DNA from: an uncultured Alteromonadaceae bacterium
Lineage (GTDB): Bacteria; Pseudomonadota; Gammaproteobacteria; Enterobacterales; Alteromonadaceae
Length of the DNA: 64,000 bases
Direction of reading: 5' to 3'
Assembly: GCA_947501935.1 (NCBI GenBank)
Contig: CANMXU010000015.1
Location: forward strand, 33,872 to 97,871
Notes under the pieces: model-generated
What the model saw: only the letters and a program-made list of their open reading frames with translations
The model's database searches: none
Told to the model about the DNA's origin: nothing
Shown: positions 44,049 to 64,000 of the stretch, in pieces
Layout: every line of letters begins with the position of its first letter
Numbering within the stretch: the stretch's first letter is position 1
Translations under genes and position numbers: made by a program

Positions 44049-44208
44049 ATGGTTAATTCCTTAATATAAAGCGCTTAGGTGTACTATTAACTCTATCATA
44101 AGGGATGCTTATTTGTATGGAGAATTATTTACACAAGCTTTACACTGCTTTGCGTTTCTTTGCGTAATTTTCTCTATAGTAATATCAAGCCAATGAAGTA
44201 TTGCTCAG

Positions 44209-44223
44209 GTAAACTTTTATAAA
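44209..44223 (+). promoter_or_regulatory. Candidate CpxR box in the cpxP-cpxR intergenic region
   Basis: GTAAA-CTTTT-ATAAA compared with the E. coli consensus GTAAA-N5-GTAAA. Lies about 90 nt upstream of the cpxP ATG. Confidence 0.4.
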
Positions 44224-44310
44224 TTGGCATGTATTTGTAGCCATTAAGTTCTTCCCCCCTAAAGTAACTTAATGGTATTTGAAATTTATTTGTTTATGAG
44301 GAACAACAAA

Positions 44311-44805: not shown

Positions 44806-44850
44806 GTTCACCTACCTCTTAAAACTTGCTATTTATTCAATTTATTTTGT

Positions 44851-44890
44851 AAAAAAGCCACTAACTCAAAGTTGAATTAGTGGCTTTTTA
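44851..44890 (+). terminator. Rho-independent terminator after cpxP
   Basis: AAAAAA-GCCACTAA...TTAGTGGC-TTTTT. Confidence 0.75.
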
Positions 44891-44893
44891 TAT

Positions 44894-44932
44894 CAGTTCA
44901 GTTCAGTTCAGTTCAGTTCAGTTCAGTTCAGT
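44894..44932. repeat. Pentanucleotide microsatellite (CAGTT), 7 full copies plus CAGT
   Basis: A perfect tandem run lies between the cpxP terminator and the stop codon of the convergent BlaR1-like gene. Confidence 0.95.
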
Positions 44933-44945
44933 GAAAAAATAAAAC

Positions 44946-46880: not shown

Positions 46881-46899
46881 TGCCGTTCAGCAGTGGCGA

Positions 46900-47286
46900 T
46901 TAAGCCTGCTGTTCCAGTTTATTCAACAATTGGCGAATATCTTCAATTTCTTTTTTACTGGTTGAGTCGCCAATAGCGCGCATTACCAATTTAGAAGTTG
47001 AACCACCAAAGGCTTTCATGGCCAAATCTTTTAATAATGAAGATTGAGTAAACACTTCACTATTAGCGGGACTATATACATGGGCACGATTGGTTTCGTC
47101 ACGAGTGACAAGTGACTTATCATGCATAATTTGTAATATTTTTAATACCGTTGTGTAACCGGTATGTTGCGTTTCACTAACCGCATCATGTATTTGTCTA
47201 ACTGTAGAGGGGCCTATTTTCCATAGGACATTCAATAAAGACAATTCAGCTTCAGTGGGTTTGAGCCTCGAACGTTCACGAGCCAT
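46900..47286 (-). CDS. BlaI/MecI/CopY family transcriptional repressor
   Basis: wHTH LSLLNVLWKIGPSTVRQIHDAV...GYTTVLKILQIMHDKSLVTRD. Start placed at the ATG at 47286 (MARERSRLKPTEAE). Confidence 0.88.
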   Translation of the reverse strand: MARERSRLKPTEAELSLLNVLWKIGPSTVRQIHDAVSETQHTGYTTVLKILQIMHDKSLVTRDETNRAHVYSPANSEVFTQSSLLKDLAMKAFGGSTSKLVMRAIGDSTSKKEIEDIRQLLNKLEQQA

Positions 47287-47309
47287 GGGTAATTCCTTCA
47301 AAATGCACA

Positions 47310-47344
47310 TAACTAACGACAAGCTAGTTAAGAAAACTTAGTTA
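47310..47344. promoter_or_regulatory. Candidate operator upstream of the BlaI-like gene
   Basis: TAACTA-N9-TAGTTA dyad plus a third TAGTTA copy 8 nt further on, 24-58 nt upstream of the ATG. Confidence 0.3.
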
Positions 47345-47463
47345 CGAATAACATCGTATCTTGTGTAGATAAAATGAGCAACATTTTATTACCTTTCCAA
47401 TTACAATATCAAACAATTTTAACTCTTCCTTGAACATATCTTCATCACTAATAACGATGACAT

Positions 47464-47504
47464 AAAATAAAAATACCGCCAATAGTTGTTACTAATAGCG
47501 GTAT
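47464..47504 (-). terminator. Rho-independent terminator after the 910-aa secreted phosphoesterase gene
   Basis: Minus strand: ATACCGC-loop-GCGGTAT followed by TTTTTATTTT. Confidence 0.7.
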
Positions 47505-47532
47505 TAAACTTAAGTCAATTCACTTTAGTCTT

Positions 47533-50265
47533 TTAGTTTGCAACGACTGTTATATCATCAATATAACTTGTGCCTAAAATACCGTATGCGTATATAAGTG
47601 CAGAAGTATCAGTAGCACCAGTGGTAAAACTAACTTCTTGAGTTACATAGGTGCTACTCGTTGTTCTTTTAACAACTTTTGCGCCACCATAATTATTCGC
47701 ATAAAGGCCAACTTTACCGGTAGTTTTAACTTTTGCACTAAAGGTATAAGTTGTATTTGGCGTTAAACCAGTAATGGTTGCTTTAATATCACCTCCTTCA
47801 GCAATTTCACCGGCAAAGCTACCACTATTAGCATTACCACTTTCACGGCTAGCTAAGTAGTATTCCCAGAAAGTGTCGGTTTCAAAGCCACCATTTTCAA
47901 CAATTTCACTAGGGCCCGGATCAACTACCGTAGCATCAGCACTAATGCTTACATTATCAACAAAGGCTTTTTCAGCATTTCGGTTACCATTAGTAGCAAA
48001 TTGCACAATCACTTGTGCTTGATCATTAGCTGCTGCTGGTAAAGTAAAGCTTTTACTCGCCCAAGCTGTATCTTGTGTTACTTCTAGGGTAGTCCAAGTT
48101 GAACCGTCAACTGACCATTGTACGGTTAAGTTTTCACTATCAACAAAACCTATAGTAGTACGGTCATAGCTAATGTTTACGTTCTCATAACCTGTTGTTG
48201 AAAGGGTTTTGCTTAACACCGCACCATTTTTAACTCGTGCACCGTAAGTACCGCCATTTGAAGCTGCTGTAGCAATTTCAGTTACGCCGCTACCTTCGTT
48301 TGTCCAACCGCCAGCAGTTAAAGTGCCGCTTTCAAAGTCATCATTGAATAGCTCACCCGTACCCGGAGTACCGCCACCACATGCACTATCATCAAGGTCA
48401 AGTACAAGTTTTGATGCTGGACCATTTTCACGGTCGTTCATATCAAAACCGTTAGTAGTAGAATCAGATGAAATAACCACACCATTATTATCGCCGCCAT
48501 CAACCCAGCTTTGCACAACAGCAAGACCTGCTGATGAGATAGTAATTGAACGACTACCTACTGTTTCAGGAATAAATGAAGACATTAATACATCTTGATG
48601 AGCCGCACCAGAAACACTGTTCCATGTAGCATCACCTTCAGTCCAGCTAAATGCACCAGAATGGACATTATAAGAACCGGTCGAGTTATTAGTTACTTCC
48701 ACTTCGATGCTCGCCGCAGTAACAATATTACAGCTATCAACACTGCTTACATCCCAAGCAATTAAAGTATTTAAGTCGCCATATGTACTATCGCCAATAT
48801 CAGCCAATAGCTGATCGGCGTGATCATCAAAGTTTTGACCTGACAAGGTTTCAGAAATATAAGTATCGGCCGCTGCATCTAATTCAACATCGCCTGATGG
48901 TGTAGTACCACCACCGCCGCCAGAGCTACCATCTCCTTCACCAATAATGGATAAACCACTACCACTATGGGTTAAGGTCATCACTTCACCAATACCTTGC
49001 GCGCTCCACCAGTTAATACCTGTTGGTAATACTGTTGTATCTGCAGCACGTTGAGCGGCGGTGATAGTACTTGCACCTGCATCAAATTGAGCGGTGCGCA
49101 TTTCTACAGAATCTGGCGAGACCGTAATAATTTTAAACTGCTGAATACTGGCCGCATCTAAAGTCCAGTCATAACTTTTATTTGCTGAACGAGCATTAGC
49201 GCCCCAGCTACCTTCACCGGCAAAAACAGTACCACCGCTGGTGGTAACTACATAACTACTGCCGCTCGGTTTAACTGCTTCTGTAATTTTATTAAGATGA
49301 GTATCAGACTCAATTGCCAAGTTCATCGCATTGTCATAAAAAGTATCTGCCCACCAAGAAAATAATTGTGGATTTTCATCTTTACTAGCTAAATGCGGAA
49401 AAAATGGTTTGTGGTATTGGGCAAAACGCCAGCTAACACTTGAACCGTTAGCTTCCATATCACTCTTTAACCAGTTTTTCTGTTCGGTTCCTTCAGTAGA
49501 CCAGCCACTTTCTTGGTATTGCGAGTTCAAAGTATAAACACGTAAAAGTGAGCCTACGTTAAAAGCACCGTAAGTATCATCGGTAGTACAGTTGCCATCA
49601 CCATCAAAATCTACACCAAAAACACGACATAAAGTTTTGTAGTCGTCATCTTCATGGTTACCAAGGGTTGGCACTAACGGGTATACACGACTATATGCAA
49701 TACCGTCGATGGTATCAGCCGAGTATGTCACTTTAAAATCTTCAAAATACTGCTTCATTTGTGAAGTATTATTAGCATCGGTAAAGTCACCACCATGCAT
49801 AATAAATAATGGACGAATCTTAGCTAACAGTTGGTTACCTAAACGGCGAGTGTCCCAGCCTGAACGGGTATCACCACCAGCAAGCATAACAAAAGGTGTA
49901 TCGTCATCAGGAGCGGTTTTAAACCATAAACGCTCACCACAATTACCGTCTTCACAAACACGATAATATACCGGTGAATTAGCAGGTAACCCGGTTAAAC
50001 GAACAAAGTGACTTTTTAATGAGCCGTCAAATGTTTCAGTATTAGCCACTTGAGCATCTTGCCAGTTACTTTCGTTAGTGGTGAAACCATAAGTGACATA
50101 GGTATCTTTTGAGCCACTCGTTTGTGAATAAGCAATTACCGCATTTTGTGATGGGTCTGAATCCCAAGTTACACGATGGTAATCAATAGTTGCACTTGCT
50201 GAACCAGCAGCTGTTGCGAGCGCTAAGGCAAGCATGCTTCGGCCAAAAGGTAGTCGTTTCATCAT
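47533..50265 (-). CDS. Secreted multidomain protein: PAP-type N-terminal beta-sandwich + calcineurin-like metallophosphoesterase + DNRLRE-type domain + beta-sandwich module + CBM4_9-like module
   Basis: 910 aa with signal peptide (..AAGSASA-T). MPE motifs GGDTRSG, HGGDFTD, GNHEDDD, QYHKP, ESDTH. DNRLRE-like block (AADTYISE...WTEGDATWNS...MNDRENGPASKLVLD). C-terminal ENGGFE...TPNTTYTFSAKVKTTG. Confidence 0.85.
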   Translation of the reverse strand: MMKRLPFGRSMLALALATAAGSASATIDYHRVTWDSDPSQNAVIAYSQTSGSKDTYVTYGFTTNESNWQDAQVANTETFDGSLKSHFVRLTGLPANSPVYYRVCEDGNCGERLWFKTAPDDDTPFVMLAGGDTRSGWDTRRLGNQLLAKIRPLFIMHGGDFTDANNTSQMKQYFEDFKVTYSADTIDGIAYSRVYPLVPTLGNHEDDDYKTLCRVFGVDFDGDGNCTTDDTYGAFNVGSLLRVYTLNSQYQESGWSTEGTEQKNWLKSDMEANGSSVSWRFAQYHKPFFPHLASKDENPQLFSWWADTFYDNAMNLAIESDTHLNKITEAVKPSGSSYVVTTSGGTVFAGEGSWGANARSANKSYDWTLDAASIQQFKIITVSPDSVEMRTAQFDAGASTITAAQRAADTTVLPTGINWWSAQGIGEVMTLTHSGSGLSIIGEGDGSSGGGGGTTPSGDVELDAAADTYISETLSGQNFDDHADQLLADIGDSTYGDLNTLIAWDVSSVDSCNIVTAASIEVEVTNNSTGSYNVHSGAFSWTEGDATWNSVSGAAHQDVLMSSFIPETVGSRSITISSAGLAVVQSWVDGGDNNGVVISSDSTTNGFDMNDRENGPASKLVLDLDDSACGGGTPGTGELFNDDFESGTLTAGGWTNEGSGVTEIATAASNGGTYGARVKNGAVLSKTLSTTGYENVNISYDRTTIGFVDSENLTVQWSVDGSTWTTLEVTQDTAWASKSFTLPAAANDQAQVIVQFATNGNRNAEKAFVDNVSISADATVVDPGPSEIVENGGFETDTFWEYYLASRESGNANSGSFAGEIAEGGDIKATITGLTPNTTYTFSAKVKTTGKVGLYANNYGGAKVVKRTTSSTYVTQEVSFTTGATDTSALIYAYGILGTSYIDDITVVAN

Positions 50266-50892
50266 TGTTGTTCTCTCTTGTTATTTTTTATTATATAGAT
50301 ACGCTATTGAGCGCTTTTTTTGATACTGAAAGTTCATGCGATATCAATAGTTAGTCACTACTGTATCCCACAGATTACCAGGAGGTTTTCAAAGTGAAGT
50401 GTTCACGCTAATTTACCCAACAGCGCTATTTTCATTTGATTATTGTGATTCTTTTTCTGATTTGACAACACGGCTATTACTTCAAATAATACTCAGTTAA
50501 AAGTTGGCATTATTGAAATACTCTTTCCTTAGGAGGTGACAATTACCCCGTCACCTTTTTCATACATATCCACAAAACAACCGGATTGATTTATCTTTAG
50601 AGCTTTACTGAATAAAAATTTAAGCTACATATCAAAAACTTAAAAGCAAAGTACTAAGAATACACAAATAAACCTCAGCCCACTAAGTACAATCCTTAGC
50701 ATTTCATGGACACTTTCAAGGTAAATGTAAATAGCTTACATATCAAGATAAATAATACATATGTACAAACAAAATAGTATTTACCTGCCATTTAACAAGG
50801 AAATAAATTACCATTATTTTGTACACAAAAATCAGTTTAATCTTAAAATACCAACACCATTGAACACTTAATATTGAAATAAAATTAGTCAT

Positions 50893-50914
50893 AAAAAAGG
50901 CCTCAATTGAGGCC
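50893..50914 (-). terminator. Rho-independent terminator after the 720-aa paralog
   Basis: Minus strand: GGCCTC-AATT-GAGGCC followed by TTTTTT. Confidence 0.75.
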
Positions 50915-50965
50915 CTTTATTATGGTGTTATTATTAATCCATTAATAATAACGTAGTTGAAGAAA

Positions 50966-53128
50966 TTAGTTCTCAACTAAATCCCAGTCATCGACATAAC
51001 TAGTACCTGACGAGCCATATACGTAAATTTCTGCTGACGTATCGGTTGAGCCGGTAGTGAAAGTTAAGCTTTTCTTAGTATAGCTACCTGATGTACTGGT
51101 AGTTGATAACTTGGTATTGCCGTAATTTCTTACATATAAGCCAATTTTACCTGTGGTTTTAACATAAGCACTTAAGGTGTAAGTGGTGTTTGGTGAAAGA
51201 CCAGTTACCGTAGTTTTAATATCACCGCCCGATGAAACTTCACCAGCAAAGCTACCAGTTCGTGCGTTATTACTAACTCGGTCAGCTATCCAATATGACC
51301 AAACTGTATTACCGTCTTCAAAGCCCGAATTTTCAAGTAATACAGTTGGCTCTGGATCAGGATCTGGCGTTGGCTCACCTGACGCTTCGTCGGCAGTAAT
51401 ACTGACATTATCAATAAAGGCTTTTTCAGCATTACGGTTACCACTAGTAGCAAACTGAATGGTTACTTGCGCTTTATTATCTGCTGCTGTTGGTAATGTG
51501 AAGGTTTTATTTGCCCAGCTACCACTTTGCGTGGTTTCAAGTGTAGTCCAGCTTGAACCGTCAACTGACCATTGCACAGTAAGGTTTTCACTACCGGCAA
51601 AGTTTAAAGTTTTACGGTCGTAAGCAATGCTCACATTTTCATAATCTACCGTAGAGAAGGTTTTACTTAAAACCGCACCATTTTTAACACGTGCACCATA
51701 GGTACCGTCTTTTGAGGCTGCCGTGGCAATTTCAGTAACACCACTGCCAGCATTTGTCCAACCACCCGCAGTTAACGTACCGCTTTCAAAGTCATCACTA
51801 AATAATGTAGACGTTCCTGAACCACCGCCAGTACCAGGATTTTCACCCGGTAAATAACCGTCAACATCGGTTGCCCAAGGCGAATCATCTTGAGTTAAGT
51901 CAACAATACTTGGATTCCACGTTGTGCCCGCGGCTTCATGCTCGGCAATAATATCGTTCGGTGCATCTTCACGGAACCAATGTTTAAAGTATCCTAGGCT
52001 TGAATGCACCGCGATACGTTCATAAGAATCATAAGTCATAAACTTAGCTTCGGCAGAGTCCATAGCTGCTTCGAACTCATTAAAACGATTACTGTTACCT
52101 TCGGCGTCAATTTCTTCCCACCAGGTTTCATACTCAGAGTCTTGCCATGCATCGTACAGATCATTTACTTCAGTTCCCATCACAATACGTTGATCACCCG
52201 CAATGGCGTCAGCTTGTGCTAACAATAACTCACCGTCACTTTTAAACTTGTTGGCATTTGAGGTGTAGTTCATAAAAGCAGCATGATTTGATACCGATAA
52301 TAAATGCTCAGATACGTATTTTTCTTGGCCGTTATAAGTTTCACGCTTCGATTTTATGTAAGAAGAAGGGTAAGTTTGCGAGAACAGGAACGGTCGAGCA
52401 CCTTGAGCCTCAAGTGTTACGTTCCATTCATCGGCACGGTCTTGTGCGGCTTTAACAAATTCAATAAGTGGATACATTAAATGTTGAGATTTTGGTTCTT
52501 GGTCATTTTGCACACCAACAAAACCAGCATCAGGATAAGCTTGGTTAAAACGACCTACTGCATCCATAATAGTTTCTGCGGCATGAATATGCTCATCGTT
52601 AGCGGTATCACCCATGTAATCAATGCTAACTTGCTTGTCACCATTTTCGTCATACCAAGTATCCCAAAGGTAGAATAACCCCCATACTTTGATATTTTTG
52701 GCATTGGCCTTGCGGATAAAGTTGGCTAAACGGTCTGCGTCTGGAATTTCGCCCGCTTGTAGCTCAGGGTCGTATTGCCAGATCATATTAGAGATATAAA
52801 TGGTATTGATAGATTTATTGGCATAAAAGTCTAACAATAAATCTTGAATATTTTTGTGGTTGTCTAAAAAGCGCTCTTTAACAGTTTCATTTGGCTGTGG
52901 GTCTGACGGATCCGCCATGTCCCAATATCGAGTGCGATTTTCAGAGCTTTCATTACCCGGTATCTGGTTGTAACGGTCAACTTCAACTGAATTCCATAAC
53001 CATACCGCACGACGTACATCTTTATCTAAAACATCCCAGTATTTATGTGCCGTATTGGCCGCAAGTACATTGGTTGTAAGTGTCGACAAAACTACACAAG
53101 CTAAACTTATGAATTTTTTCATCATCAT
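50966..53128 (-). CDS. Secreted protein: unrecognised ~430-aa N-terminal domain (possible TIM-barrel glycosidase-like) + the same beta-sandwich/CBM4_9-like C-terminal cassette
   Basis: 720 aa with signal peptide (MMMKKFISLACVVLSTLTTNVLA). The C-terminal ~285 aa align residue-for-residue with the other two paralogs. The N-terminal domain contains VQNDQEP and MGTEVND, reminiscent of clan GH-A acid/base and nucleophile strands (inference only). Confidence 0.85.
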   Translation of the reverse strand: MMMKKFISLACVVLSTLTTNVLAANTAHKYWDVLDKDVRRAVWLWNSVEVDRYNQIPGNESSENRTRYWDMADPSDPQPNETVKERFLDNHKNIQDLLLDFYANKSINTIYISNMIWQYDPELQAGEIPDADRLANFIRKANAKNIKVWGLFYLWDTWYDENGDKQVSIDYMGDTANDEHIHAAETIMDAVGRFNQAYPDAGFVGVQNDQEPKSQHLMYPLIEFVKAAQDRADEWNVTLEAQGARPFLFSQTYPSSYIKSKRETYNGQEKYVSEHLLSVSNHAAFMNYTSNANKFKSDGELLLAQADAIAGDQRIVMGTEVNDLYDAWQDSEYETWWEEIDAEGNSNRFNEFEAAMDSAEAKFMTYDSYERIAVHSSLGYFKHWFREDAPNDIIAEHEAAGTTWNPSIVDLTQDDSPWATDVDGYLPGENPGTGGGSGTSTLFSDDFESGTLTAGGWTNAGSGVTEIATAASKDGTYGARVKNGAVLSKTFSTVDYENVSIAYDRKTLNFAGSENLTVQWSVDGSSWTTLETTQSGSWANKTFTLPTAADNKAQVTIQFATSGNRNAEKAFIDNVSITADEASGEPTPDPDPEPTVLLENSGFEDGNTVWSYWIADRVSNNARTGSFAGEVSSGGDIKTTVTGLSPNTTYTLSAYVKTTGKIGLYVRNYGNTKLSTTSTSGSYTKKSLTFTTGSTDTSAEIYVYGSSGTSYVDDWDLVEN

Positions 53129-53935
53129 TATTCCTATTATTAATTATTATTGGTGACTACTTTTTTAAACCAAAATATCGAAAACAAAGCTAACTAAAGA
53201 CTCACTTCCCTTAGTAAGTTTTCTCCGTGAATAATTTAAATCTTTTGAAATCCATTTGATAAGCAAAGACAAGAAAGAATTAACAAGGCGCATACCGCCC
53301 CACACTTTCGATGACTTTCATATTTGTTGCAGATATTTTACAACTGAAGCATAATTCTTAATCAAAAATATTGCAAGAATTTTATAAAAACAAGATAAAA
53401 CAGACGAAAACAACACTAACACATTGTTAAATAAAGAATTTGAACCTTTGTCCAATGAAGTGAAAGCTATTCTATTAACATAATTGCACATGACGACAAT
53501 TGAAAAGAAATGGGAAGCATTCGAAACGCTAAACCATCCTCATTTGAAAAGCAAAAAGGTTATCACGCCATTACTTAACTGCTCCCTCTTCGAGATGAAA
53601 AAAAGTTAAGTTATTATTTTTAAATAGATTAATTAAATTGATAAATATCACTGAGTAGTAATTTTATTGATGAAAGCTTCTCTCTTACCCTGTTTTAGCT
53701 GCAACTTTCATTTCTATAACTAATCAAACTAAAGGTCAGCAAGCAAATTCTAAAAGGTACTAAAAAGGGTTTTTAACGCAAAATTAAACGCCATCTATCA
53801 ATGATGAATTTGTACATAAAATCAAAAAAATAATTAAATAGACGTTTAAAGGATAATTTAAGGCAAATAAGTTCAAGCTTAATAGCATAACTATTTAGCC
53901 TATTTAGTGAGCTATGTATGAGCTTTAAGGCGAGG

Positions 53936-54673
53936 TTAGTTTTTGTCGATAATATTACGGGTAAGCCGCGGGTAGTTAGTAAAAATACCATCAACACCTA
54001 GTAGCTGACAAAAGGCAATATCTTGGCTTTTATCCACTGTATATACATTAACTTTTAAGCCGCGTTGATGGGCATCGTCAACCAAGTTTTGGTTTAAACG
54101 TTCAATCGCGAGATTAAGCCCACAAACACCTAATTTCTCAGTAAAGGCGGCATAATCGAGCGGGCAACAAGCAATTAAGGCTGCCGTTTTTACATGAGGT
54201 AAACAGTGCTTTATCGCCACTAATAAATGATGATTAAAAGCAGAAATAACAAACTGCTCTAGTGAAAAGTTACTGACCTTAATCGCTTGAATAATTTCAC
54301 TGGCAAGAGCCTGTGCTATATGTTGAAGTTGCTCAACAGAGGTGGTGGTATCTTTGAGTTCAATGTTAACTAGGCAGCGGCCATTAATACAACCAAGCCC
54401 TTGCGCCAAAGTGGGAATGCCCTGCCCTTGGCCGGCATCTAAAGCTTGTAACTGCTCAAGCGAGTATTGCTCAAAATGACCACTGCCATTGGTGGTCGTT
54501 TCTAAGTAAACATCATGACGAAGAATAAACTCGCCACTGTGATGATAAAAAGCGTCAAGCTCTATCGCATCAACTTGTTGATTTATTGCTTGTTCAAAGG
54601 CCAGCAAGGTGTTTTCTGGAAAGTCACCGCTGGCGCCTCGATGCGCAATAATCTGCATTTTAGCTTTCGCCAT
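53936..54673 (-). CDS. Glycerophosphodiester phosphodiesterase (GDPD family, cytoplasmic UgpQ-like)
   Basis: [22 protein letters not shown]...DAIELD. Start is ambiguous (TTG 54679, ATG 54673, ATG 54658). The first two overlap the psd 3' end. Confidence 0.85.
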
Positions 54674-55571
54674 GCTCAATATTGCTGTTGCCGCTTACTT
54701 CACTAGCAGCACACAAATCAGCATAATGCTCACCTAAGCGTGTTACCGTTTCAGGACCCGCATTTTCATTGAATTTGATCATCTTCGGCGCAAAAGTAGA
54801 AACCACAGTTGAACCTAACTTAAAGCGCCCCATTTCATCACCTTTTTCAAAGTGAATAGCATCGACACCTGTAGCCGGGTATTTCCATCTAAAAATATCT
54901 TTTCCGGCTGGTGGAGTAATCGTGCCAGCCCAAGTAGTTTCAATACTGGCAACTATGGTTGCCCCTACTAATACCATCGCCATTTCGCCATGGGCGGTAT
55001 CAAATACGGCAACAACACGTTCATTGCGCGCAAATAAATCAGGCACATTGTTAGCCGTTAACGGGTTAACAGAGAATAATTCACCCGGCACATAAATCAT
55101 TTCACGCAAGGTTGCTGCCATAGGCATATGAATACGGTGGTAATCTTTAGGTGCTAAATAAATACAAGAGAATGTACCGCCTTGAAATGGTTTGGCCGTT
55201 GCCTCATCTCCACCTAATAAACTGGTTAAACTGTAATTAAAACCTTTGGCTTGAATTAATTGGCCGTCAACAATATCACCTTGCTGACTAATTGCGCCAT
55301 CTACTGGGTAGCATAAAGCATTTACATCAGGGTCGATTGGGCGTGCACCCTCTTCAAGTTCACGGGTGAAAAAGTCATTGAAGGTTTTAAAATCGCTGGC
55401 ATTTTTTAACTTGGCTTCACCCATGTTAATGCCATAAGCTTTAATAAATTTACTAATCAGTGCTGTGGTTAACCAACCCGCTTGTGCGGCGGCAAGTTTG
55501 CCCACTAAACGAGAAATAGCATGTTTAGGCATAACATACTGCAGGGCAATTTTTACTTTATCGAATGACAC
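54660..55571 (-). CDS. psd: Phosphatidylserine decarboxylase proenzyme
   Basis: 303 aa with the self-cleavage motif FKLGSTVV. Confidence 0.96.
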
Positions 55572-55600
55572 TAAGGGTTCCTTAAAATTTATTTAAAATA

Positions 55601-56638
55601 CTAATCATTAAAACGAGAGGTTAATTTGTTACTGTCTAAACTGGCCAGTATACGTTGAAAACTTGCTAAACGTTCGGCGCGAATATGTCCTTGTTCACCA
55701 GCTGCTATCAATGCACAGCCGGGATCTTTTTGATGTTTACAATCGCGAAATTTACAGCCACCAATATAATCAGCAAACTCAATAAAGCCATGGTAAACCT
55801 GCTCTGGCGTTAAATGCCATAAGCCAAACTCACGAATCCCCGGCGAGTCAATTAAGTCACCACCTTCAGTAAAATGGTATAAACGCGCAACGGTGGTAGT
55901 ATGTTGACCAAGGCCTGAGTTTTCCGAAACTTCTTTAGTTAATAAACCCAATTCTGGCATTAAGCTATTAACCAAGGTTGATTTACCAACCCCCGACTGA
56001 CCAACAAAAATACTGGTGTGATCGCTTAACTGCTCACGTACATTATCAATGCCTTCAGCAGTTTTGCTGCTAGCATAAATAATTTTATAGCCAATATCGC
56101 GGTAAATTTGTAACTGCGCTTCAATAGCCGCTTTATTATCATCAGCGAGCAAATCAATTTTGTTAAGCAATAACACCGGTGTAATACCGGTTTGCTCGGC
56201 TGCAACCAAGTAACGGTCAATAATATCGGCATTAAATACCGGCAATACTGATGACACAATAATTATTTGGCTTATATTGGCAGCAATTGGTTTTAAGCCA
56301 TCATAAACATCGGGGCGACTAAGCACTGAACGGCGCTCATGCACCGCTTCAATAATACCGCGAATACTGTGTTCGGTTTCTTTACCTAAACGCCATAAAA
56401 CGGTATCACCACAAACTAAAGATTTAACTGAACGACGAAGATTACAGCGATAACACTGTCCGTCTTGTGCTTCCACATCAGCATGCTGACCAAAACGACT
56501 GATCACGGTGCCCGTTTGCACTTCACCAAGCTCGTCATCTTGCCACTGCACGTTGTCTGCTTTAATGCGCAGTTTTTTGTCTCGATTTTCTTGAATGCGT
56601 CGATTCTGACCTTTGGTCAGTTTTCTAGTTTTAGCCAC
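55601..56638 (-). CDS. rsgA: Ribosome small-subunit-dependent GTPase A
   Basis: 345 aa with circularly permuted GTPase motifs (LLNKIDL, GQSGVGKSTLVN) and zinc knuckle CKFRDCKHQKDPGC. Confidence 0.96.
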   Translation of the reverse strand: MAKTRKLTKGQNRRIQENRDKKLRIKADNVQWQDDELGEVQTGTVISRFGQHADVEAQDGQCYRCNLRRSVKSLVCGDTVLWRLGKETEHSIRGIIEAVHERRSVLSRPDVYDGLKPIAANISQIIIVSSVLPVFNADIIDRYLVAAEQTGITPVLLLNKIDLLADDNKAAIEAQLQIYRDIGYKIIYASSKTAEGIDNVREQLSDHTSIFVGQSGVGKSTLVNSLMPELGLLTKEVSENSGLGQHTTTVARLYHFTEGGDLIDSPGIREFGLWHLTPEQVYHGFIEFADYIGGCKFRDCKHQKDPGCALIAAGEQGHIRAERLASFQRILASLDSNKLTSRFND

Positions 56639-56797
56639 GTGTTTGCTTCATTTTTTTGCACTTAAAATTCGATAAAGAATTTTTAACATCATTAATTGTC
56701 ACGTAGTATACTGTTTAATTAAGTATTCATCTATTTTTGTCTTCTTTGCGGTCACAAAATAGCTGTAGAACGTTTATTAAGGTACTAAAGGGTAATT

Positions 56798-57343
56798 ATG
56801 GCGCGTAGCGATTCAAATTTAATTTGGCTTGATCTGGAAATGACAGGCTTAGAACCACAAACGGATGTGATTTTAGAAATTGCGACCATTATTACTGACA
56901 GCCATTTAAATATTTTAGCTGAAGGGCCTGTTTTTGCTATTCATCATAGCAACGAGGTTTTAGACAACATGAGCCAGTGGTGTATTGAACACCATGGTAA
57001 GTCGGGCTTAACGCAGCGCTGTCGCGATAGCCAAACTTCCCTTGCCCAAGCCACCAAAGCTTCACTTGAATTTATTGAAGCATATGTGCCAAAGGGCGTT
57101 TCACCAATGTGCGGTAATAGCATTGGTCAAGATAGACGTTTTATTAATAAATATATGCCTGATTTTGAAGATTACTTCCATTATAGAAACTTAGATGTAA
57201 GTACCGTTAAAGAGCTTGCTCGTCGTTGGAAGCCAGAAGTATTAGATAAAGTGGTTAAAACAGGCGCACATTTAGCACTTGATGATATTCGCGAATCAAT
57301 TGCCGAATTAAAAGTTTATCAAGAGCATTTCTTTAAGCTGTAA
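56798..57343 (+). CDS. orn: Oligoribonuclease
   Basis: 181 aa, [11 protein letters not shown]...[11 protein letters not shown]. Confidence 0.97.
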
Positions 57344-57434
57344 ACTTTTCCTCAACTTCAATGTTGAATAAAAAACTTGCAGGTCTGACCAGTTAAGCTA
57401 GAATGATTTTACCTTTAAATCATTCGAGCTTACT

Positions 57435-57920
57435 ATGGCTAACCGTTTTTCACGCGCTGTTACAGCAATTCATCGCTTACCTAAAGCACTACACCCTTTC
57501 TTATTAACGCAGCTATTTTGCTCACAAGTTAAATACGCTAAAACTTCAAAAATAAAACTTTATCATGTGAGTAATCATCAAGTTAAGTTGGGTGTTAACA
57601 ACGTAAAACGGGTGCAAAACCATATTGGCGGTGTGCATGCTATTGCCGCAGCGTTATTAGCTGAGTCGGCCAGTGGCATTGTTTTTGGCATGAATGTGCC
57701 TGATAACAAACTGCCATTATTAAAAAGCATGAACATTGAATATCAAAGGCGTATGCAAGGTAACCTAACCGCCATTGCCACCATAAATGACCAACAAATT
57801 GCAGAAATAGAAAATAATGAAAAAGGCAGCTTTTTTATTCATATTGAAATAACCGACGAGTCGGGTGAACAACCTATTGTTTGTAAAATGGATTGGGCGT
57901 GGGTAACTAAAAAGAAGTAA
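57435..57920 (+). CDS. Hotdog-fold thioesterase-like protein (DUF4442/YiiD_C-like)
   Basis: 161 aa. The pattern NHIGGVHAIAAALLAESASG fits PaaI/DUF4442-type hotdog proteins. Confidence 0.7.
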   Translation: MANRFSRAVTAIHRLPKALHPFLLTQLFCSQVKYAKTSKIKLYHVSNHQVKLGVNNVKRVQNHIGGVHAIAAALLAESASGIVFGMNVPDNKLPLLKSMNIEYQRRMQGNLTAIATINDQQIAEIENNEKGSFFIHIEITDESGEQPIVCKMDWAWVTKKK

Positions 57921-58016
57921 AAGCAAATAAATACCCAGACTATATAACGGCTATCCTTGATAGCTGCTAATATGAGCTAACTTTCTATTTGTCTCAACGA
58001 TTTAAACTGCTTACTT

Positions 58017-58490
58017 ATGAAAAAAATTGCCATTTTTGTTGATGTTCAAAACATTTATTACACCACTCGCGATGGCTTTAGCAAACAGTTTAACTACCGT
58101 AAGCTTTGGCAATTGCTCAGTGAAGAAAATGAAATTATACTCGCCAATGCTTACGCGATTCAGCGCAGTGACGACCAACAACATAAATTTCAAAAAGCGT
58201 TAAAACACATTGGCTTTAACGTAAAATTAAAACCTTTTATTCAACGCAGTGACGGCAGCGCCAAAGGCGACTGGGATGTAGGTATTACTATTGATGTAAT
58301 GGAAGCCGCCCCAGAAGTAGATGAAGTTATATTGCTTTCAGGTGATGGTGACTTTGACTTGCTGCTTCGAAAAATAAAATCAAGCTACCAGGTCGCAAGC
58401 CATGTTTATGGTGTGCAGCAACTTACCGCTAATTCATTAATTATGGCGGCAGATACATTTACCGCCATAGATGACAATTTACTGCTTTAA
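58017..58490 (+). CDS. NYN-domain (LabA/DUF88-like) protein
   Basis: 157 aa: KIAIFVDVQNIYY...DVGITIDVME...VILLSGDGDF, an acidic-residue pattern typical of NYN/LabA nucleases. Confidence 0.8.
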   Translation: MKKIAIFVDVQNIYYTTRDGFSKQFNYRKLWQLLSEENEIILANAYAIQRSDDQQHKFQKALKHIGFNVKLKPFIQRSDGSAKGDWDVGITIDVMEAAPEVDEVILLSGDGDFDLLLRKIKSSYQVASHVYGVQQLTANSLIMAADTFTAIDDNLLL

Positions 58491-60965
58491 CACTTTTGGC
58501 TTTTGGCTTTTGGCTTTTGGCTTTTGGCTTTTGGCTTTTGGCTTTTGGCTTTTAGCTGCTACTTTACGATAGCTAATCATGAAAAACATTGCCAATAATA
58601 GCATGAGTTGACTGCTACCTCCGCCACTACTCGCTTGTGGCGTAACCACAATCACTTCTACTTCAATAGTAACATTAACGCTATCACTGGCTGATAAACC
58701 AGTACTGTCTGTCACCGTTAAGGTGAAGGTTAATTCACTGTCTCTTTGCGGGGCAATAAAGTTAGCATTTAGCGCGTTAGCATTATTTATTTCTACGGTT
58801 TCGCCAGCACTTTGTTGCCATAAATAAGTTAAATTATCATCATCAAGGTCGGTCACTGTCGCGGTTAAATTAACTTGTTGACCAGCATTACCAGAAAAAT
58901 CATTACCTATATTAACTTGTGGAACATGTTCACCTTCAGAAGCTGAAATATTAATAGTAGCTAAATTGGGTTGGCCTAAAGTGACGCCATTTTTAGGATC
59001 AAATAAGCGCACCAATAATAATTCTGCGCCTTCAGCAAGGTTATCACTTAGCAGGTTTACGCTAATATTTTTCGTGTTATTGTCGCCATCAGCCCAGTTC
59101 AAACTGCCTGATGCTAAGGTAAAGTCTTCAACATCAGCAGAGCCTGAAACTAACTGCCAATTTACTGCAACAGCATCGCTACTTTGCCCATCGTTTTCGT
59201 CAATACGTTGAACTTCTATATTGACCGCTTGCCCTTCATCACCTTGATATTGGCTCGCATTAAAACGCAAACTGCCTTGAGCGGTAGCCAGAGTATTATC
59301 TTTTAGTATATATAAGCCGCTATTAATATCGCTAACGAGAACATTTCCGCTTGGTAAAAACGGATAAACACCCCACGCGCCATTAAAAGATGCATTATTT
59401 GAAATAGGGTAAGTATCAAAAAAGCCGACTTCACTAGGCAGCAACGGATCGCTAATATCTAATACCGTTAAACCGCGTTCATAATTCGACATATAATAAC
59501 GGTTACCACGTACATAGCCGTTGTGATCTATGGTGCGGGTAGAGCCTGTCCAAGTAGATAATAAAGAAGGTGCGGTTAAATTGGTTATATCAAAAAGCCT
59601 CAGCGTGGTATTTAGTCCTTTTGATTGCTCGTCTAATTCATCGTGCACCAACATCATCATTTTATCTTCGCTATACCAACCAGAATGTACATACGAGGCG
59701 TTAGCATAACTGGTAGTACTTAGTTTTTCTGGCTGAGCATTATTGGTTTTATCCCATAATTGAAAGTCGTTTTCATTAAAATCAAACATCACTTCACAGT
59801 GATCACTACCATTAACACACTGGCTATCTTTACGCTGGTCTTCAATAACCATCGAACTAATATCATGACTATATTGCTGACGATCATTACTAGGTATAGG
59901 GCTGGGCTTATAAACACTGGATAATTGTCTCGGATTTTCCAAACTGTAAGTATTAAAGCCACCGCCATTAAAATTTGATCCGGCAATATGTAAATACGGC
60001 GTTTTCCCCGTTAAAGCCACACCGGTAGAATAGTCAACATTGCTTAAATAAACATTATGAGCACTAATATCAGAGCTGTCATTTGCTGCAACAGTAACGC
60101 TATTTGGTAATTGATTTAAGTCTAAAATCATAATACCAACATTAGCATTATCAGCAGTTACATAGGCGTAGCTCTGCCATTTAGTAAGTTGAATATCAAA
60201 ATACTGATAAATTTTTATGTCACGCCAACCGGTAGTTTCGCTGGCAATAGTATTAATAACACTTGGCGCTGACGGGTTGGAAACATCAACCACACTTACG
60301 CCGTTATCTAAACCGATAATCGCATACTCTTTTTGCGAATTCAGATCGTAATGCCCCCAAATATCATTCGCTTTACCGGGGTTAGTAGAAAAAGAATTTA
60401 AGGGTAAATGCGCAAGCAAATCTATATTGTTACACGGAAAATCACCTGATAAGTTGTCAATGCAAAGACTATTGGTTTGCACTTGCTGAAGTTTTGCATA
60501 ACTTTGTAATTTTCGTGCTAGTACCACACTTTGCACTGAAGCCGGATTATCTTGTGCCTTTTTATCAACAATAACGGTAAAGCCTTTATTTGATAATAGT
60601 TGAACATATTCAGCTGGCACACCAGTTAAATAGGTTAAATTGCTTTGAGCTTTTACCGCGAATAAGTCAGCTCGTTGATAATTTGGAATTACTGGAATTA
60701 AGTCACTGAGTAAATAAAATAAGGTATCAGCATTTTCAATAAAATAACTGCCCTTGCTGACTCTAATTTGGTCGCCTTTATTAGCATTTTGCACTGCATA
60801 AAAAATACTTTTACACGGAGCATTAACGTCATCACAACGGCCAACATCATCACCTGAATCAGCAACATAACGAGCTTTATCATGCTCTGCATGCGCATCA
60901 GCTTGCTTGATAAAACTAACCAGCGCTAACATCAACACACTAACAAAAATTAAATACTTACTCAT
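58479..60965 (-). CDS. Secreted choice-of-anchor-B/LVIVD-repeat protein with Calx-beta and PKD-like domains and a GlyGly-CTERM-like sorting signal followed by a Lys-rich repeat tail
   Basis: 828 aa with signal peptide. FPCNNIDLLAHL plus LVIVD-type repeats (GVSVVDVSNPSAP, GLTVLDISDPLLP, SGLYILK). Calx-beta-like block, then PKD-like (LTYLWQQSAG). SSGGGSSQLMLLLAMFFMISYRK is followed by VAAKSQKPKAKSQKPKAKSQKPKVLKQ. Confidence 0.85.
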   Translation of the reverse strand: MSKYLIFVSVLMLALVSFIKQADAHAEHDKARYVADSGDDVGRCDDVNAPCKSIFYAVQNANKGDQIRVSKGSYFIENADTLFYLLSDLIPVIPNYQRADLFAVKAQSNLTYLTGVPAEYVQLLSNKGFTVIVDKKAQDNPASVQSVVLARKLQSYAKLQQVQTNSLCIDNLSGDFPCNNIDLLAHLPLNSFSTNPGKANDIWGHYDLNSQKEYAIIGLDNGVSVVDVSNPSAPSVINTIASETTGWRDIKIYQYFDIQLTKWQSYAYVTADNANVGIMILDLNQLPNSVTVAANDSSDISAHNVYLSNVDYSTGVALTGKTPYLHIAGSNFNGGGFNTYSLENPRQLSSVYKPSPIPSNDRQQYSHDISSMVIEDQRKDSQCVNGSDHCEVMFDFNENDFQLWDKTNNAQPEKLSTTSYANASYVHSGWYSEDKMMMLVHDELDEQSKGLNTTLRLFDITNLTAPSLLSTWTGSTRTIDHNGYVRGNRYYMSNYERGLTVLDISDPLLPSEVGFFDTYPISNNASFNGAWGVYPFLPSGNVLVSDINSGLYILKDNTLATAQGSLRFNASQYQGDEGQAVNIEVQRIDENDGQSSDAVAVNWQLVSGSADVEDFTLASGSLNWADGDNNTKNISVNLLSDNLAEGAELLLVRLFDPKNGVTLGQPNLATINISASEGEHVPQVNIGNDFSGNAGQQVNLTATVTDLDDDNLTYLWQQSAGETVEINNANALNANFIAPQRDSELTFTLTVTDSTGLSASDSVNVTIEVEVIVVTPQASSGGGSSQLMLLLAMFFMISYRKVAAKSQKPKAKSQKPKAKSQKPKVLKQ
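58493..58555. repeat. Heptanucleotide microsatellite (CTTTTGG)x8 plus one degenerate copy
   Basis: Perfect copies span 58493-58548, followed by CTTTTAG. It starts 2 nt after the NYN gene stop and encodes the (KSQKPKA)n tail of the convergent 828-aa ORF. Confidence 0.95.
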
Positions 60966-61321
60966 AACTTGTCCTGCGTTTCCCTGAGTTTTCTAACTGT
61001 ACAAATGTAGCTGACAATATACAAAAGCTAATCAGCAGCTACTTTTCAGTTAATCCGTTAATAATAGTTGAGGAGTATTTATTCGTCAGGTAAGCGTGCG
61101 TCTAATGCTTTTAGAGAGCGAAGAAATAACTCATAAAGTAAAAACTTTATAATAATAGCGAGTCTTTTTAAACCTTACTAGTTGCGCCTGCAAAGCAGTG
61201 AGACTTAATAAACAACTAACACCTCTCAACGTGATAAAGACAGTGGCAAATTACCAATCCCTTTGTAAGAGCCATTGACATCTGTATTCCACACTACCTA
61301 TGCTCACGGGTTCTCTCTATT

Positions 61322-61353
61322 AAAAATGCCGCTTAGGTTTCCCTATGCGGCAT
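61322..61353 (-). terminator. Rho-independent terminator after the third paralog
   Basis: ATGCCGC-loop-GCGGCAT flanked by A and T runs. Confidence 0.7.
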
Positions 61354-61455
61354 TTTACTTTTTAACTAAATTATGACTTTAGATTAAATAGTGCCTTTAA
61401 CTTAATAATGTAATGTTTTCTCTATCAGTTATCGGCTATTTATCAATCAAAAATT

Positions 61456-64000
61456 TTAGTTTTCAACTAAAGTAATATCATCTACATAACCAGTACCAGA
61501 GCCACCATAAGCGTAAATCGTTGCTGATGTATCCGTTGCACCCGTTGTAAAGGTTATCGTTTTAGTGGCGTAATTTGAGTTAGTCATTGAGCTACCTACA
61601 CGACTACCACTGCCAGCAAAGTCTTTCGCATAAATGCCAACACTGCCTGTAGTTTTCAAAGCCGCGGTCGCTGTATATGAGGTATTAGGTTTTAAGCCAG
61701 TTACTAATGTTTTGATGTCGCCACCAGCATTAATTTTCCCTGCATAACTACCGGTATTGGCATTACTATTTACTCGACTAGAAATGTAATATAACCAAGT
61801 AGTATTTTCTTCAAAACCACCATTTTCAAGTAATGCACTTGGTTCTGGATCAGGATCTGGCGTTGTACCACCGTCTGATACGTCAGCAGTAATGCTTACA
61901 TTGTCAATAAAGGCTTTTTCAGCATTTCGATTGCCATTAGTAGCAAATTGAATAATCACTTGTGATTGATCATTCGCTGCTGCTGGTAAATCAAAGCTCT
62001 TAGTTGCCCAATTTAAATCTTGGGTTACTTCTAGCGTTGACCAGCTTGAACCGTCAACTGACCATTGTACGGTTAAGTTTTCACTACCGGCAAAACCTAA
62101 GGTTTTACGATCATAACTAACGTTTATGCTTTCATAGCCAGAAGTAGAAATGGTTTTACTTAACACTGCACCATTTTTAACACGAGCACCATATGTACTA
62201 TTGTTAGAGGCTGCCGTAGCAATTTCAGTTACGCCGCTACCTTCGTTAGTCCAACCACCAGCAGTTAAAGTACCGCTTTCAAAGTCGTCGCTAAATAGTT
62301 CACCGTCACCTGGTGTACCACCGCCGCCACATGCGCTATCATCAATATCTAAAATTAATTTAGCAGCTGGGCCGTTTTCACGGTCGTTCATATCAAGGCC
62401 GTTGTTAGTACCGTCAGATGAAATTACTACACCATTATTATCGCCGCCATCAATCCAACTTTGCACAACAGCAAGACCAGCATTTGAAATAGCAATAGTG
62501 CGGCTCCCCGTTGTTTCAGGAATAAATGAAGACATTAAGATATCTTGATGACCCGCGCCTGAAAGGCTGTTCCAAGTTGCGTCACCTTCAGTCCAGCTAT
62601 ATTTGCCAGAGTGAACGTTATAGCTACCCGTTGAGTTGTTAGTTACTTGCACTTGAATGCTTGCAGCTGTTACCACATTACAGCTTTCAACACTGCTTAA
62701 GTCCCATGCAATTAAGGCATTTAAGTCACCGTAGGTGCCGTCACCAATATCAGCAAGTAATTGGTCAGCATTATCATCAAAGTTTTGACCAGCTAAAGTT
62801 GCAGAAATAAAGGTATCTGCTGCCGCATCTAGCTCAACATCACCTGTTGGCTGTGGATCAGGATCTGGCGTTGGGTCGGTACCATCACCATCATCAATAA
62901 TTGATAAACCTGAGCCGCTTTGCACTAAGGTCATCACTTCGCCAACTTCGTTTGCACTCCACCAGTTAACACCGGTAGGTAAACGAGTAGAATCATTTTT
63001 ACGTTGATTTGCCGTTAAAGTACTTGCACCAGAATCGAACTGCGCCGTACGCATTTCAACTTTATCTGGTGTTACTGTGATAATTTTAAACTGTTGAATA
63101 CTGGCTGAATCTAAGGTCCATGCATAAGATTTATTTGCTGAACGAGAGTCTGCACCCCAGCTACCTTCACCAGCGAAAACTGTACCGCCATTGGTTGTTA
63201 CAGCAAAACTACTACCACTTGGCTTAACCGCTTTAGTTACTTTATTTAAATGAGTATCTGATTCAATAACAAGGTTCATACCGTTATCATAGAAGGTATC
63301 AGCCCACCACGTAACTAACTGTGGATTTTCATCTTTACTTGAAAGGTGTGGGAAGAAAGGTTTGTGATACTGACCAAAACGCCAAGTGGCGCTGCCGCCA
63401 TTATTTTCCATATCGCTTTTAAGCCAATCTCTTTGTTCTCTGCCTTCAGTTGACCAACCACTTTCTTGATATTGTGAGTTTAAAGTATAAACACGTAGTA
63501 AATCACCTACGTTGAATGCGCCGTAAGTATCATCAGTAGTACATTTTCCGTCACCGTCAAAGTCTACACCCCATACACGACAAAGTGATTTATAGTCGTC
63601 GTCTTCATGGTTACCTAAAGTAGGTACTAATGGATAGATACGCTTATAAGCAGTTCCGTCGATAGTGTCTGAAGAGAAAGTATCTTCCCAATCAGCAAAA
63701 AATTGTTTCATTTGTGAGGTATTATTATCATCAGTGAAATCACCACCGTGCATAATAAATAAAGGACGAATCTTAGCTAATAGTTCGTTACCTTTACGGC
63801 GAGTTGACCAGCCTGAACGAGTATCGCCACCAGCTAACATTACAAATGGGCTATTATCGTCAGGTGCTGTTTTAAACCAAAAACGATCGCCACAGCTTGT
63901 ACCTTCACATACACGGTAATAAACCGGAGAATTAGCAGGTAAGCCGGTTAAACGCACAAAGTGACTTTCGAAGTTACCATCAAAAGTTTCCGTATTATTT
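61456..64000 (-). CDS. Second copy of the metallophosphoesterase + DNRLRE + beta-sandwich + CBM4_9-like secreted protein (5' end runs off the window)
   Basis: The track ORF starts at an internal Met (63957). The frame stays open to position 64000, and the extra residues (..NNTETFDGNFESHFVRLTG) align with ..ANTETFDGSLKSHFVRLTG of the 910-aa paralog. Confidence 0.85.
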   Translation of the reverse strand, partial: NNTETFDGNFESHFVRLTGLPANSPVYYRVCEGTSCGDRFWFKTAPDDNSPFVMLAGGDTRSGWSTRRKGNELLAKIRPLFIMHGGDFTDDNNTSQMKQFFADWEDTFSSDTIDGTAYKRIYPLVPTLGNHEDDDYKSLCRVWGVDFDGDGKCTTDDTYGAFNVGDLLRVYTLNSQYQESGWSTEGREQRDWLKSDMENNGGSATWRFGQYHKPFFPHLSSKDENPQLVTWWADTFYDNGMNLVIESDTHLNKVTKAVKPSGSSFAVTTNGGTVFAGEGSWGADSRSANKSYAWTLDSASIQQFKIITVTPDKVEMRTAQFDSGASTLTANQRKNDSTRLPTGVNWWSANEVGEVMTLVQSGSGLSIIDDGDGTDPTPDPDPQPTGDVELDAAADTFISATLAGQNFDDNADQLLADIGDGTYGDLNALIAWDLSSVESCNVVTAASIQVQVTNNSTGSYNVHSGKYSWTEGDATWNSLSGAGHQDILMSSFIPETTGSRTIAISNAGLAVVQSWIDGGDNNGVVISSDGTNNGLDMNDRENGPAAKLILDIDDSACGGGGTPGDGELFSDDFESGTLTAGGWTNEGSGVTEIATAASNNSTYGARVKNGAVLSKTISTSGYESINVSYDRKTLGFAGSENLTVQWSVDGSSWSTLEVTQDLNWATKSFDLPAAANDQSQVIIQFATNGNRNAEKAFIDNVSITADVSDGGTTPDPDPEPSALLENGGFEENTTWLYYISSRVNSNANTGSYAGKINAGGDIKTLVTGLKPNTSYTATAALKTTGSVGIYAKDFAGSGSRVGSSMTNSNYATKTITFTTGATDTSATIYAYGGSGTGYVDDITLVEN

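Follow-up and report, generated by a model that had tools for sequence, protein, structure and literature searches.

The 64,000-nucleotide stretch of DNA considered here (termed the window) comes from an uncultured Alteromonadaceae bacterium (contig CANMXU010000015.1, positions 33,872 to 97,871 of the forward strand) and encodes, on its minus strand, three proteins that end in the same C-terminal cassette of about 275 residues (273-281 aligned C-terminal residues). The genes, termed here A, B and C, are found at 47533..50265, 50966..53128 and 61456..64000, just where a preliminary description of the window had placed them. Gene A specifies 910 residues comprising a signal peptide, a purple acid phosphatase (PAP)-type FN3 domain, a metallophosphoesterase domain, a CBM96/DNRLRE domain (where CBM stands for carbohydrate-binding module) and the two components of the cassette, termed module 1 and module 2. 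Gene B specifies 720 residues comprising a signal peptide, an unclassified head that is predicted to form a TIM barrel, and the same two modules. Gene C is a paralog of A with the same architecture; its frame is open through base 63999, where the window cuts the gene, leaving at least 847 residues and an N-terminus that lies beyond the window. All three proteins had been described as carrying signal peptides, which holds for A (the Sec-type MMKRLPFGRSMLALALATAAGSASA) and B (MMMKKFISLACVVLSTLTTNVLA), both read directly from the sequence, and concerns a part of C that the window does not reach. Since A and B are neighbours on one strand, with 700 bp between them, the cassette occupies two loci rather than the three counted earlier.

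The cassettes are 66-69% identical to each other, with E-values between 1e-110 and 1e-125 (BLASTP and tblastn): the figures are 66.3% over 279 residues for A against B (E 2e-110) and 68.0% over 281 residues for B against C (E 3e-124). The motif strings on which the preliminary description had based the notion of a common tail match this alignment. A and C are paralogs over their full length (77.1% identity over 846 residues, with 82% between the heads and 84% between the CBM96 regions) and presumably arose by duplication. Conservation within the cassette is uneven, amounting to 78-84% in module 1 as against 57-60% in module 2 (59% between A and B). Module 1 spans residues 639-777 of A (47935..48351), 442-580 of B (51389..51805) and 568-706 of the partial protein C (61882..62298); module 2 spans residues 789-910 (47536..47901), 598-720 (50969..51337) and 724-847 (61459..61830), respectively, and Gly/Pro/Asp-rich linkers occur on both sides of the modules. 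The DNA sequences of the cassettes show 73-76% identity, and their longest exact run in common is 41 nt; hence they are old paralogs, and recent gene conversion between them was rejected on the same figures.

A tblastn search with the cassette of A finds three copies, and no fourth, in the 64-kb window (the next match has E = 6), and a pattern scan of genome contigs finds a single cassette locus, with two cassette genes, in the assembly of Thalassotalea sp. PLHSN55. (That scan requires both an LFSDDFES and a SENLTVQW motif, so that the conservation of these motifs in the alignment of relatives is partly a selection effect; it was nevertheless more informative than a word-indexed protein search with the cassette, which gave two weak matches and missed B's own entry.) The proteins end in DDITVVAN or DDWDLVEN, and the C-terminus of the cassette has no transmembrane segment and no recognised sorting motif. 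Over the window and that assembly, the cassette does not behave as a generic tag borne by dozens of proteins. Moreover, a profile-profile comparison aligns module 1 with module 2 over their full length (85% probability, E 6e-6), which indicates a tandem of two divergent members of a single jelly-roll superfamily. These results support the view that two beta-sandwich modules of the CBM type, and not a sorting tag, make up the cassette.

Module 2 had been described as CBM4_9-like, and the copy in B does pass the Pfam threshold for CBM_4_9 (32.4 bits; cut-off 25.9), the copy in A scoring, on its own, slightly under it (22.9 bits). Searched with phmmer against the PDB, module 2 matches 8xmz_A (E 3e-12), 4q8k_A (E 1.3e-8) and the family CBM16 entries 3oea and 2zew (E ~1e-4), relatives of a cellulose/mannan-binding type. 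The first of these bears the title "novel porphyran-binding carbohydrate binding module" and is, according to its reference, a family 16 CBM. The nearest non-orthologous relatives in reference genomes (43-46% identity) lie inside alginate lyases of polysaccharide lyase (PL) family PL7 from two Paenibacillus species. The second PDB chain, 4q8k_A, was deposited as "Alginase" and is matched on its N-terminal domain; we take it to be the PL18 alginate lyase aly-SJ02.

Module 1 has no counterpart among Pfam families. Positions 2-162 of the 162 in the NCBIfam model for the choice-of-anchor J domain (NF038128) align with the copy in the window at 18.1 bits (E 0.0024), and 12 of 24 members of the module 1 family match that model at E <= 0.01, the best of them at 4e-7; to judge from these alignments, module 1 is a weak relative of choice-of-anchor J. 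A genome scan located about 20 further module 1 loci (25-51% identity) in Planctomycetota, Verrucomicrobiota, Myxococcota and several Archaea, where the module is mostly C-terminal and its hosts include M12B reprolysin-like peptidases, a CBM96/beta-helix protein, a weakly GH25-like protein (GH denoting glycoside hydrolase) and others. Its AlphaFold2 (AF2) model is an all-beta sandwich, in agreement with the fold first proposed for it, and the top Foldseek matches of this model are CBMs, with 8xmz ahead of members of families 4, 16, 61, 6 and 15. Module 1 is a candidate for a new binding-module family.

The protein in which the cassette's origin is best sought is B, whose head (residues 24-425; 51854..53059) stands outside existing classifications. 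Residues 1-445 have zero matches to Pfam or NCBIfam models up to E 10, and the head finds no PDB chain by sequence and none by profile up to E 10; that is, it matches no described GH family by sequence in these three collections. The family is small: a word-indexed search finds 6 proteins among 5.8 billion, and a HMMER profile search of 1.84 billion representatives finds 74 clusters at E <= 1e-3, with 23 at E <= 1e-30. (The protein collection includes B itself, as NCBI entry P0003 with 100% identity; a search with A did not find A, its best match being 68% identical.) The AF2 model of the head consists of eight alternating strand/helix units (pTM 0.70, mean pLDDT 66), and Foldseek assigns it a probability of 1.0 to many TIM barrels, with a GH53 galactanase, GH5 mannanases, GH5_18 and GH18 enzymes among the best. 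In this predicted model E211 (within DQEP) is located just past the strand formed by residues 205-208 (strand 4), and E320 (within GTE) ends the strand formed by residues 314-319 (strand 7). Close relatives of the head show no variation in DQEP and GTE, and the equivalent D-x-E-P and E-T hardly vary in 40 distant ones; if the model is right, E211 and E320 would form the 4/7 catalytic layout of clan GH-A. Thus B is plausibly a glycan hydrolase. A further motif, NTAHKxWD, occupies residues 25-32 (~53033-53056), directly past the signal-peptide cleavage site, and is invariant in all six close homologs of the head, from two phyla; a mature N-terminus is seldom so conserved, which suggests that the motif has a function.

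The genomic context of relatives supports a glycan-degrading role for B. A standalone homolog of the head (P0007; L025, 8137-11143 region) belongs to a Bacteroidota locus with ECF sigma and anti-sigma factors, SusC, SusD, an FN3 plus arylsulfotransferase-like protein, GH20, a sulfotransferase and GH123. A second homolog, found in L037/L038 (L037, 8001-16944), consists of the head, three CBM_4_9 domains and a type IX secretion system (T9SS) tail, with GH20 and a hybrid two-component regulator to one side of its gene and SusC, SusD and an arylsulfotransferase-like protein to the other. The FN3 domain of this Bacteroidota arylsulfotransferase-like propeller protein is of the PAP type, and the propeller protein co-occurs with a B-head homolog and GH20 in two SusC/SusD loci. 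(A literature search on the combination of a polysaccharide utilization locus, or PUL, with an arylsulfotransferase and GH20 found nothing.) Further relatives of the head carry T9SS tails, CBM_4_9, Laminin_G_3, CBM9, CBM30 or CBM11, and in the Bacteroidota proteins the head is directly followed by CBM domains with 37-43% identity to module 2.

The other two heads are of an unrelated kind, so that the reuse of one cassette on different catalytic domains, as first described, stands. The head of A (residues 26-445; 48931..50190) combines Pur_ac_phosph_N (38.8 bits; cut-off 30) with a calcineurin-like Metallophos domain (26.8 bits; cut-off 21.5); C matches Metallophos at 27.6 bits, its N-terminal domain being cut by the end of the window. 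Residues 460-622 of A (48400..48888) match both the DNRLRE model NF033679 (57.6 bits; cut-off 34) and CBM96 (PF24517; 31.8 bits; cut-off 26), the DNRLRE match appearing only when this segment is scanned alone (whole-protein NCBIfam scans of A and C gave nothing). The corresponding region of C (62344..62841, with approximate borders) is 84.3% identical to that of A over 166 residues and is presumably of the same CBM96/DNRLRE type. The metallophosphoesterase and DNRLRE domains attributed to two of the proteins are therefore confirmed for A by curated cut-offs and extended to C by an identity of 77-84%.

Across 25 homologs of the A head, D132, D160, N203, H204, H285, H291, D321 and H323 are invariant. 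By motif reading, the Tyr of the PAP signature GDxxY is not at its canonical position: motif II of A is HGGDFTDAN (consensus GGDYTNAN), with D or N at +3. A profile of the same 25 homologs, compared with the PDB, gives a best PAP match of E 0.11, so that no solved relative is detectable. About 300 scored homologs of the A head come from marine Gammaproteobacteria, and the 120 listed, all at least 50% identical, come from such genera as Pseudoalteromonas, Microbulbifer, Vibrio, Colwellia, Thalassomonas, Shewanella, Alteromonas, Catenovulum and Cellvibrio. The tails at the C-termini of these homologs vary, including PPC (pre-peptidase C-terminal), CBM96, CBM_5_12, CBM6 and PKD domains, with PPC on most of the matches listed; CBM_4_9 (PF02018) is on none of the 120.

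Genes of the A-head family belong to a trio in marine Gammaproteobacteria, the other members being a cytochrome b561 and EB_dh fusion (~500-550 residues) and an Lcl_C/DUF1566 protein (~210-225 residues); these two partners accompany the phosphoesterase gene in six genera. Trio loci were seen in Pseudoalteromonas (L030 and L031), Microbulbifer (L032), Vibrio (L041), Thalassomonas (L043) and Alteromonas (L042), as well as in L001 (11251-13459) and L035 (13463-17168), and in Alteromonas the phosphoesterase gene adjoins PhoD and is near PhoX. The partnership suggests that the cytochrome b561-EB_dh protein serves as a membrane electron-transfer partner for the metal centre of the phosphatase. In the window the two partners are not beside A, and the region upstream of C is beyond the window. 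(Elsewhere in the window, at 24407-27295 on the minus strand, a gene encodes a 962-residue protein that joins a sulfatase domain to PKD and to two Lcl_C domains; its Lcl_C is the domain type that partners PAP-like phosphoesterases in other genomes.) The conserved partners and the PhoD and PhoX neighbours of this family point to general phosphate scavenging rather than to cleavage of a phosphodiester polymer, and the A/C head seems to be a general phosphohydrolase that marine heterotrophs secrete, with a targeting module that is swapped between lineages.

The order B-then-A is kept in Thalassotalea sp. PLHSN55 (L001; 78% identity for B and 79% for A), and in metagenome contigs from ENA (L029; 83% and 89%) and JGI (L034/L035; 84% and 85%), in keeping with the expectation that the genes would co-occur in relatives. 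In L001 and L035 the pair belongs to a longer run that reads TPR-sulfotransferase, sulfotransferase, SapC, B, A, cytochrome b561-EB_dh and Lcl_C; in L035 this run is preceded by genes for a TonB-dependent receptor and an Asp/Arg-hydroxylase-like protein and followed by an extra, head-only PAP-like gene. In the window the pair is surrounded by housekeeping genes, and none of the genes that flank it in PLHSN55 was matched there. Heads of the B type have module 2-like domains across phyla, and heads of the A type never do so outside this clade, from which it would follow that A copied the tail of its neighbour; A, in other words, probably acquired its cassette from B.

The B-A spacer (50266-50965) is AT-rich and, at 700 bp, longer than the ~105-165 bp of the orthologous pairs (L001, L029 and L034/L035); it contains no open reading frame of at least 60 residues and no Rfam match, and an Rfam scan of 44000-64000 gave zero RNA elements. 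A terminator-like hairpin of the Rho-independent type follows the 3' end of B on the minus strand (50891..50914; GGCCTCAATTGAGGCC then TTTTTT), leaving ~630 bp of AT-rich spacer between it and A. A promoter scan gave signal at background level. The genes immediately downstream of A (44946-47322, minus strand) encode a BlaI-like repressor and a fusion of a BlaR1 (M56) sensor with a TonB C-terminal domain. Directly downstream of C (58479-60965, minus strand) is a gene for a secreted protein of 828 residues with choice-of-anchor B (TIGR04312, 445 bits), Calx-beta and PKD domains; this protein ends in a Gly/Ser stretch, a hydrophobic segment and a basic tail of KPKAKSQ repeats, an arrangement that resembles a sorting signal.

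From what is observed, namely the shared cassette, the domain identities, the conserved adjacency of B and A and the genomic contexts of their relatives, we infer, with a confidence that is modest though better than even, that a tandem of CBM-type modules tethers a glycan hydrolase (B) and two phosphohydrolases (A and C) to one glycan-rich surface. The head of B, which belongs to a small unclassified family of predicted TIM barrels with a putative clan GH-A layout, would probably be a retaining glycoside hydrolase and the original owner of the cassette. A and C are members of a widely distributed group of secreted PAP-like metallophosphoesterases, which normally have other tails and probably serve in phosphate scavenging. 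Within a Thalassotalea-like lineage, A probably gained its tail through recombination with B, the neighbour upstream of it, and A and C would stem from a duplication, with the outcome that a glycan hydrolase and two phosphohydrolases would be held on the same substrate surface. That surface would most plausibly be an anionic or sulfated polysaccharide matrix of algae or particles. As to the polymer, however, the available hints disagree: relatives of the binding modules suggest an algal polysaccharide of the anionic or sulfated kind, and the PUL partners of B-type heads suggest glycans that contain N-acetylhexosamine (HexNAc).

Several observations weigh against this reading. The window's module 1 falls below the choice-of-anchor J cut-off of 30 bits, and the AF2 model that groups it with CBMs is of only modest confidence (pLDDT 62.7). 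The B head matches GH barrels with low TM-scores (0.35-0.40), and isocitrate lyases and other non-GH barrels rank alongside the GH barrels among its Foldseek matches. Members of CBM16 bind cellulose, mannan or porphyran, so that the ligand of module 2 cannot be read from its family. The TonB-receptor context of the relatives has been lost around the B-A pair of the window. Finally, a terminator of B's own and the 700 bp that separate it from A mean that co-expression is not implied, and no E. coli-type Pho box was found near the cassette genes, although this last is a weak test.

A phosphodiester-containing substrate, such as teichoic-acid-like material, a phosphoglycan or extracellular DNA (eDNA), was put forward in the preliminary description, and the corresponding alternative is a dedicated system in which A and C would cut phosphodiesters, B would cut glycosidic bonds and a neighbouring cytoplasmic glycerophosphodiesterase (GDPD) would finish the degradation. 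The gene for the GDPD (53936-54679) overlaps psd (54660-55571) by 20 bp, follows rsgA and is not beside the B-A pair in relatives; judging from gene order, it appears to belong to an rsgA-psd housekeeping lipid operon. Gene overlap and synteny therefore reject it as a member of the system, and its proximity is no evidence for a phosphodiester polymer. What would still fit such a system is that a phosphoesterase and a probable glycosidase with a common cassette are conserved neighbours and that GH20 hexosaminidases co-occur with relatives of the B head; polymers of HexNAc-phosphate do exist. Yet the A-head family is present, with chitin-type, alginate-type or PPC tails, in hundreds of genomes that lack B, and has conserved partners and PhoD/PhoX neighbours of its own; the partner of the B head in Bacteroidota is an arylsulfotransferase-like propeller rather than a phosphoesterase; and the relatives of the binding modules sit on alginate and porphyran enzymes, not on proteins that bind teichoic acid or DNA. 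With its contextual support gone, a dedicated phosphodiester system is improbable.

The cassette might alternatively be an aid to folding or secretion, or a pro-region cut off once the protein has been exported, in the manner of PPC or of the CBM-like N-terminal extension of aly-SJ02. Module 2 is homologous to that extension (4q8k_A, as above), a PPC domain occupies the equivalent position on most A-head homologs among the matches listed, and the modules have Gly/Pro/Asp-rich linkers on either side; but the Bacteroidota B-head proteins carry module 2-like domains internally, before their T9SS tails, in two or three copies, as is typical of CBMs. Neither the strong conservation of module 1 relative to module 2 nor its presence on many unrelated secreted proteins of other phyla sits well with such a helper, which we regard as unlikely. 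Anchoring to the producer's own surface or matrix (capsule, extracellular polysaccharide or biofilm polysaccharide) as a retention device is quite unlikely, for although module 1 is related to choice-of-anchor J, known from surface-anchored proteins, although sulfotransferase genes whose products might modify a self-made glycan flank the pair in relatives, and although the window is rich in c-di-GMP (GGDEF/EAL) genes, the cassette proteins have no sorting signal, module 2 has its nearest relatives on degradative enzymes, and relatives of the B head are in nutrient-uptake loci.

Tethering to an external glycan-rich surface can also be carried further, to a more ambitious account that we consider doubtful. 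The head of B would found a new GH family that moved, together with a CBM16-like module, from Bacteroidota PULs to Gammaproteobacteria; the phosphatases would have taken its cassette, allowing carbon and phosphorus to be harvested from one surface, possibly a phosphorylated or sulfated HexNAc-containing marine glycan; and the A-head family would need a dedicated membrane partner, the cytochrome b561-EB_dh protein, to set the redox state of its metals.

If tethering to a glycan-rich surface is correct, then secreted phosphatases held in place by CBMs would show how particle-attached marine bacteria avoid losing phosphate-releasing enzymes by diffusion. The analysis draws attention to three unclassified components: the head of B, module 1, and the partnership of a PAP-like phosphoesterase with cytochrome b561-EB_dh and Lcl_C. 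The first is a candidate for a new GH family, the substrate of which could be sought with the PUL contexts of its relatives (GH20, GH123 and the arylsulfotransferase-like protein) as a guide; the second is a candidate binding-module family whose other carriers, in Planctomycetota, Verrucomicrobiota and Archaea, include peptidases and lyase-like proteins. No principle is changed by these findings.

Each component resembles a known type and departs from it in specific ways. Like clan GH-A enzymes (GH5, GH53 and so on), the head of B has a predicted (beta/alpha)8 barrel, in which a conserved Glu would follow each of strands 4 and 7, and a motif of the [D/N]-x-E-P type; unlike them, it lacks a sequence match to GH Pfam models or PDB chains and resembles them at a generic barrel level only. 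Module 2 shares with CBM16 its length, an N-terminal N-x-GFE motif, a C-terminal DD motif and, through 8xmz_A, clear homology, but it is ~30-45% identical to characterised members and is fused behind a second, divergent jelly roll. Module 1 aligns across the whole choice-of-anchor J model, and half of its relatives match it at the threshold given above, whereas the window copies fall under the curated cut-off, and its LFSDDFES start and its partners (M12B peptidases and CBM96/beta-helix proteins) mark it as a separate sub-family. For CBM96/DNRLRE, the middle domain of A scores above both curated cut-offs, and the equivalent region of C is its near relative, but in both proteins it is fused to a phosphoesterase rather than to a lyase. 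The founding member of CBM96, TM6-N4, is ~30% identical to DNRLRE domains, and alginate binding is demonstrated in PMC9971899 for TM6-N4 alone. With PAP-type and PhoD-type enzymes A and C share secretion, a PAP-type FN3 domain followed by a calcineurin-like fold, and the motif series GD / GD / GNHE / H / D-x-H, one relative being beside PhoD and near PhoX; they differ from PAP in lacking the canonical GDxxY Tyr and a significant match to a solved structure, from PhoD in lacking a PhoD Pfam match, and from both in the conserved partnership of their family with cytochrome b561-EB_dh and Lcl_C.

For the system as a whole, no description of this combination was found in the literature, as the preliminary description had supposed. 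The closest precedent is the secreted carbohydrate-active enzymes (CAZymes) of Saccharophagus and Cellvibrio, which share CBM2 and CBM10. As in such sets, A, B and C reuse one group of modules on different secreted heads, with low-complexity linkers between the modules, and in relatives the B-A genes are tied to TonB-receptor loci. By contrast with such sets, two of the three heads (A and C) are metallophosphoesterases rather than CAZymes, the head of B is outside Pfam and NCBIfam families, and module 1 matches no Pfam model. The multimodular alginate and cellulose enzymes of flavobacteria offer a further parallel (PMC13235733). The sharing of binding modules among secreted enzymes is, in short, a known practice, and the phosphatase heads described here extend the modular logic of CAZymes.

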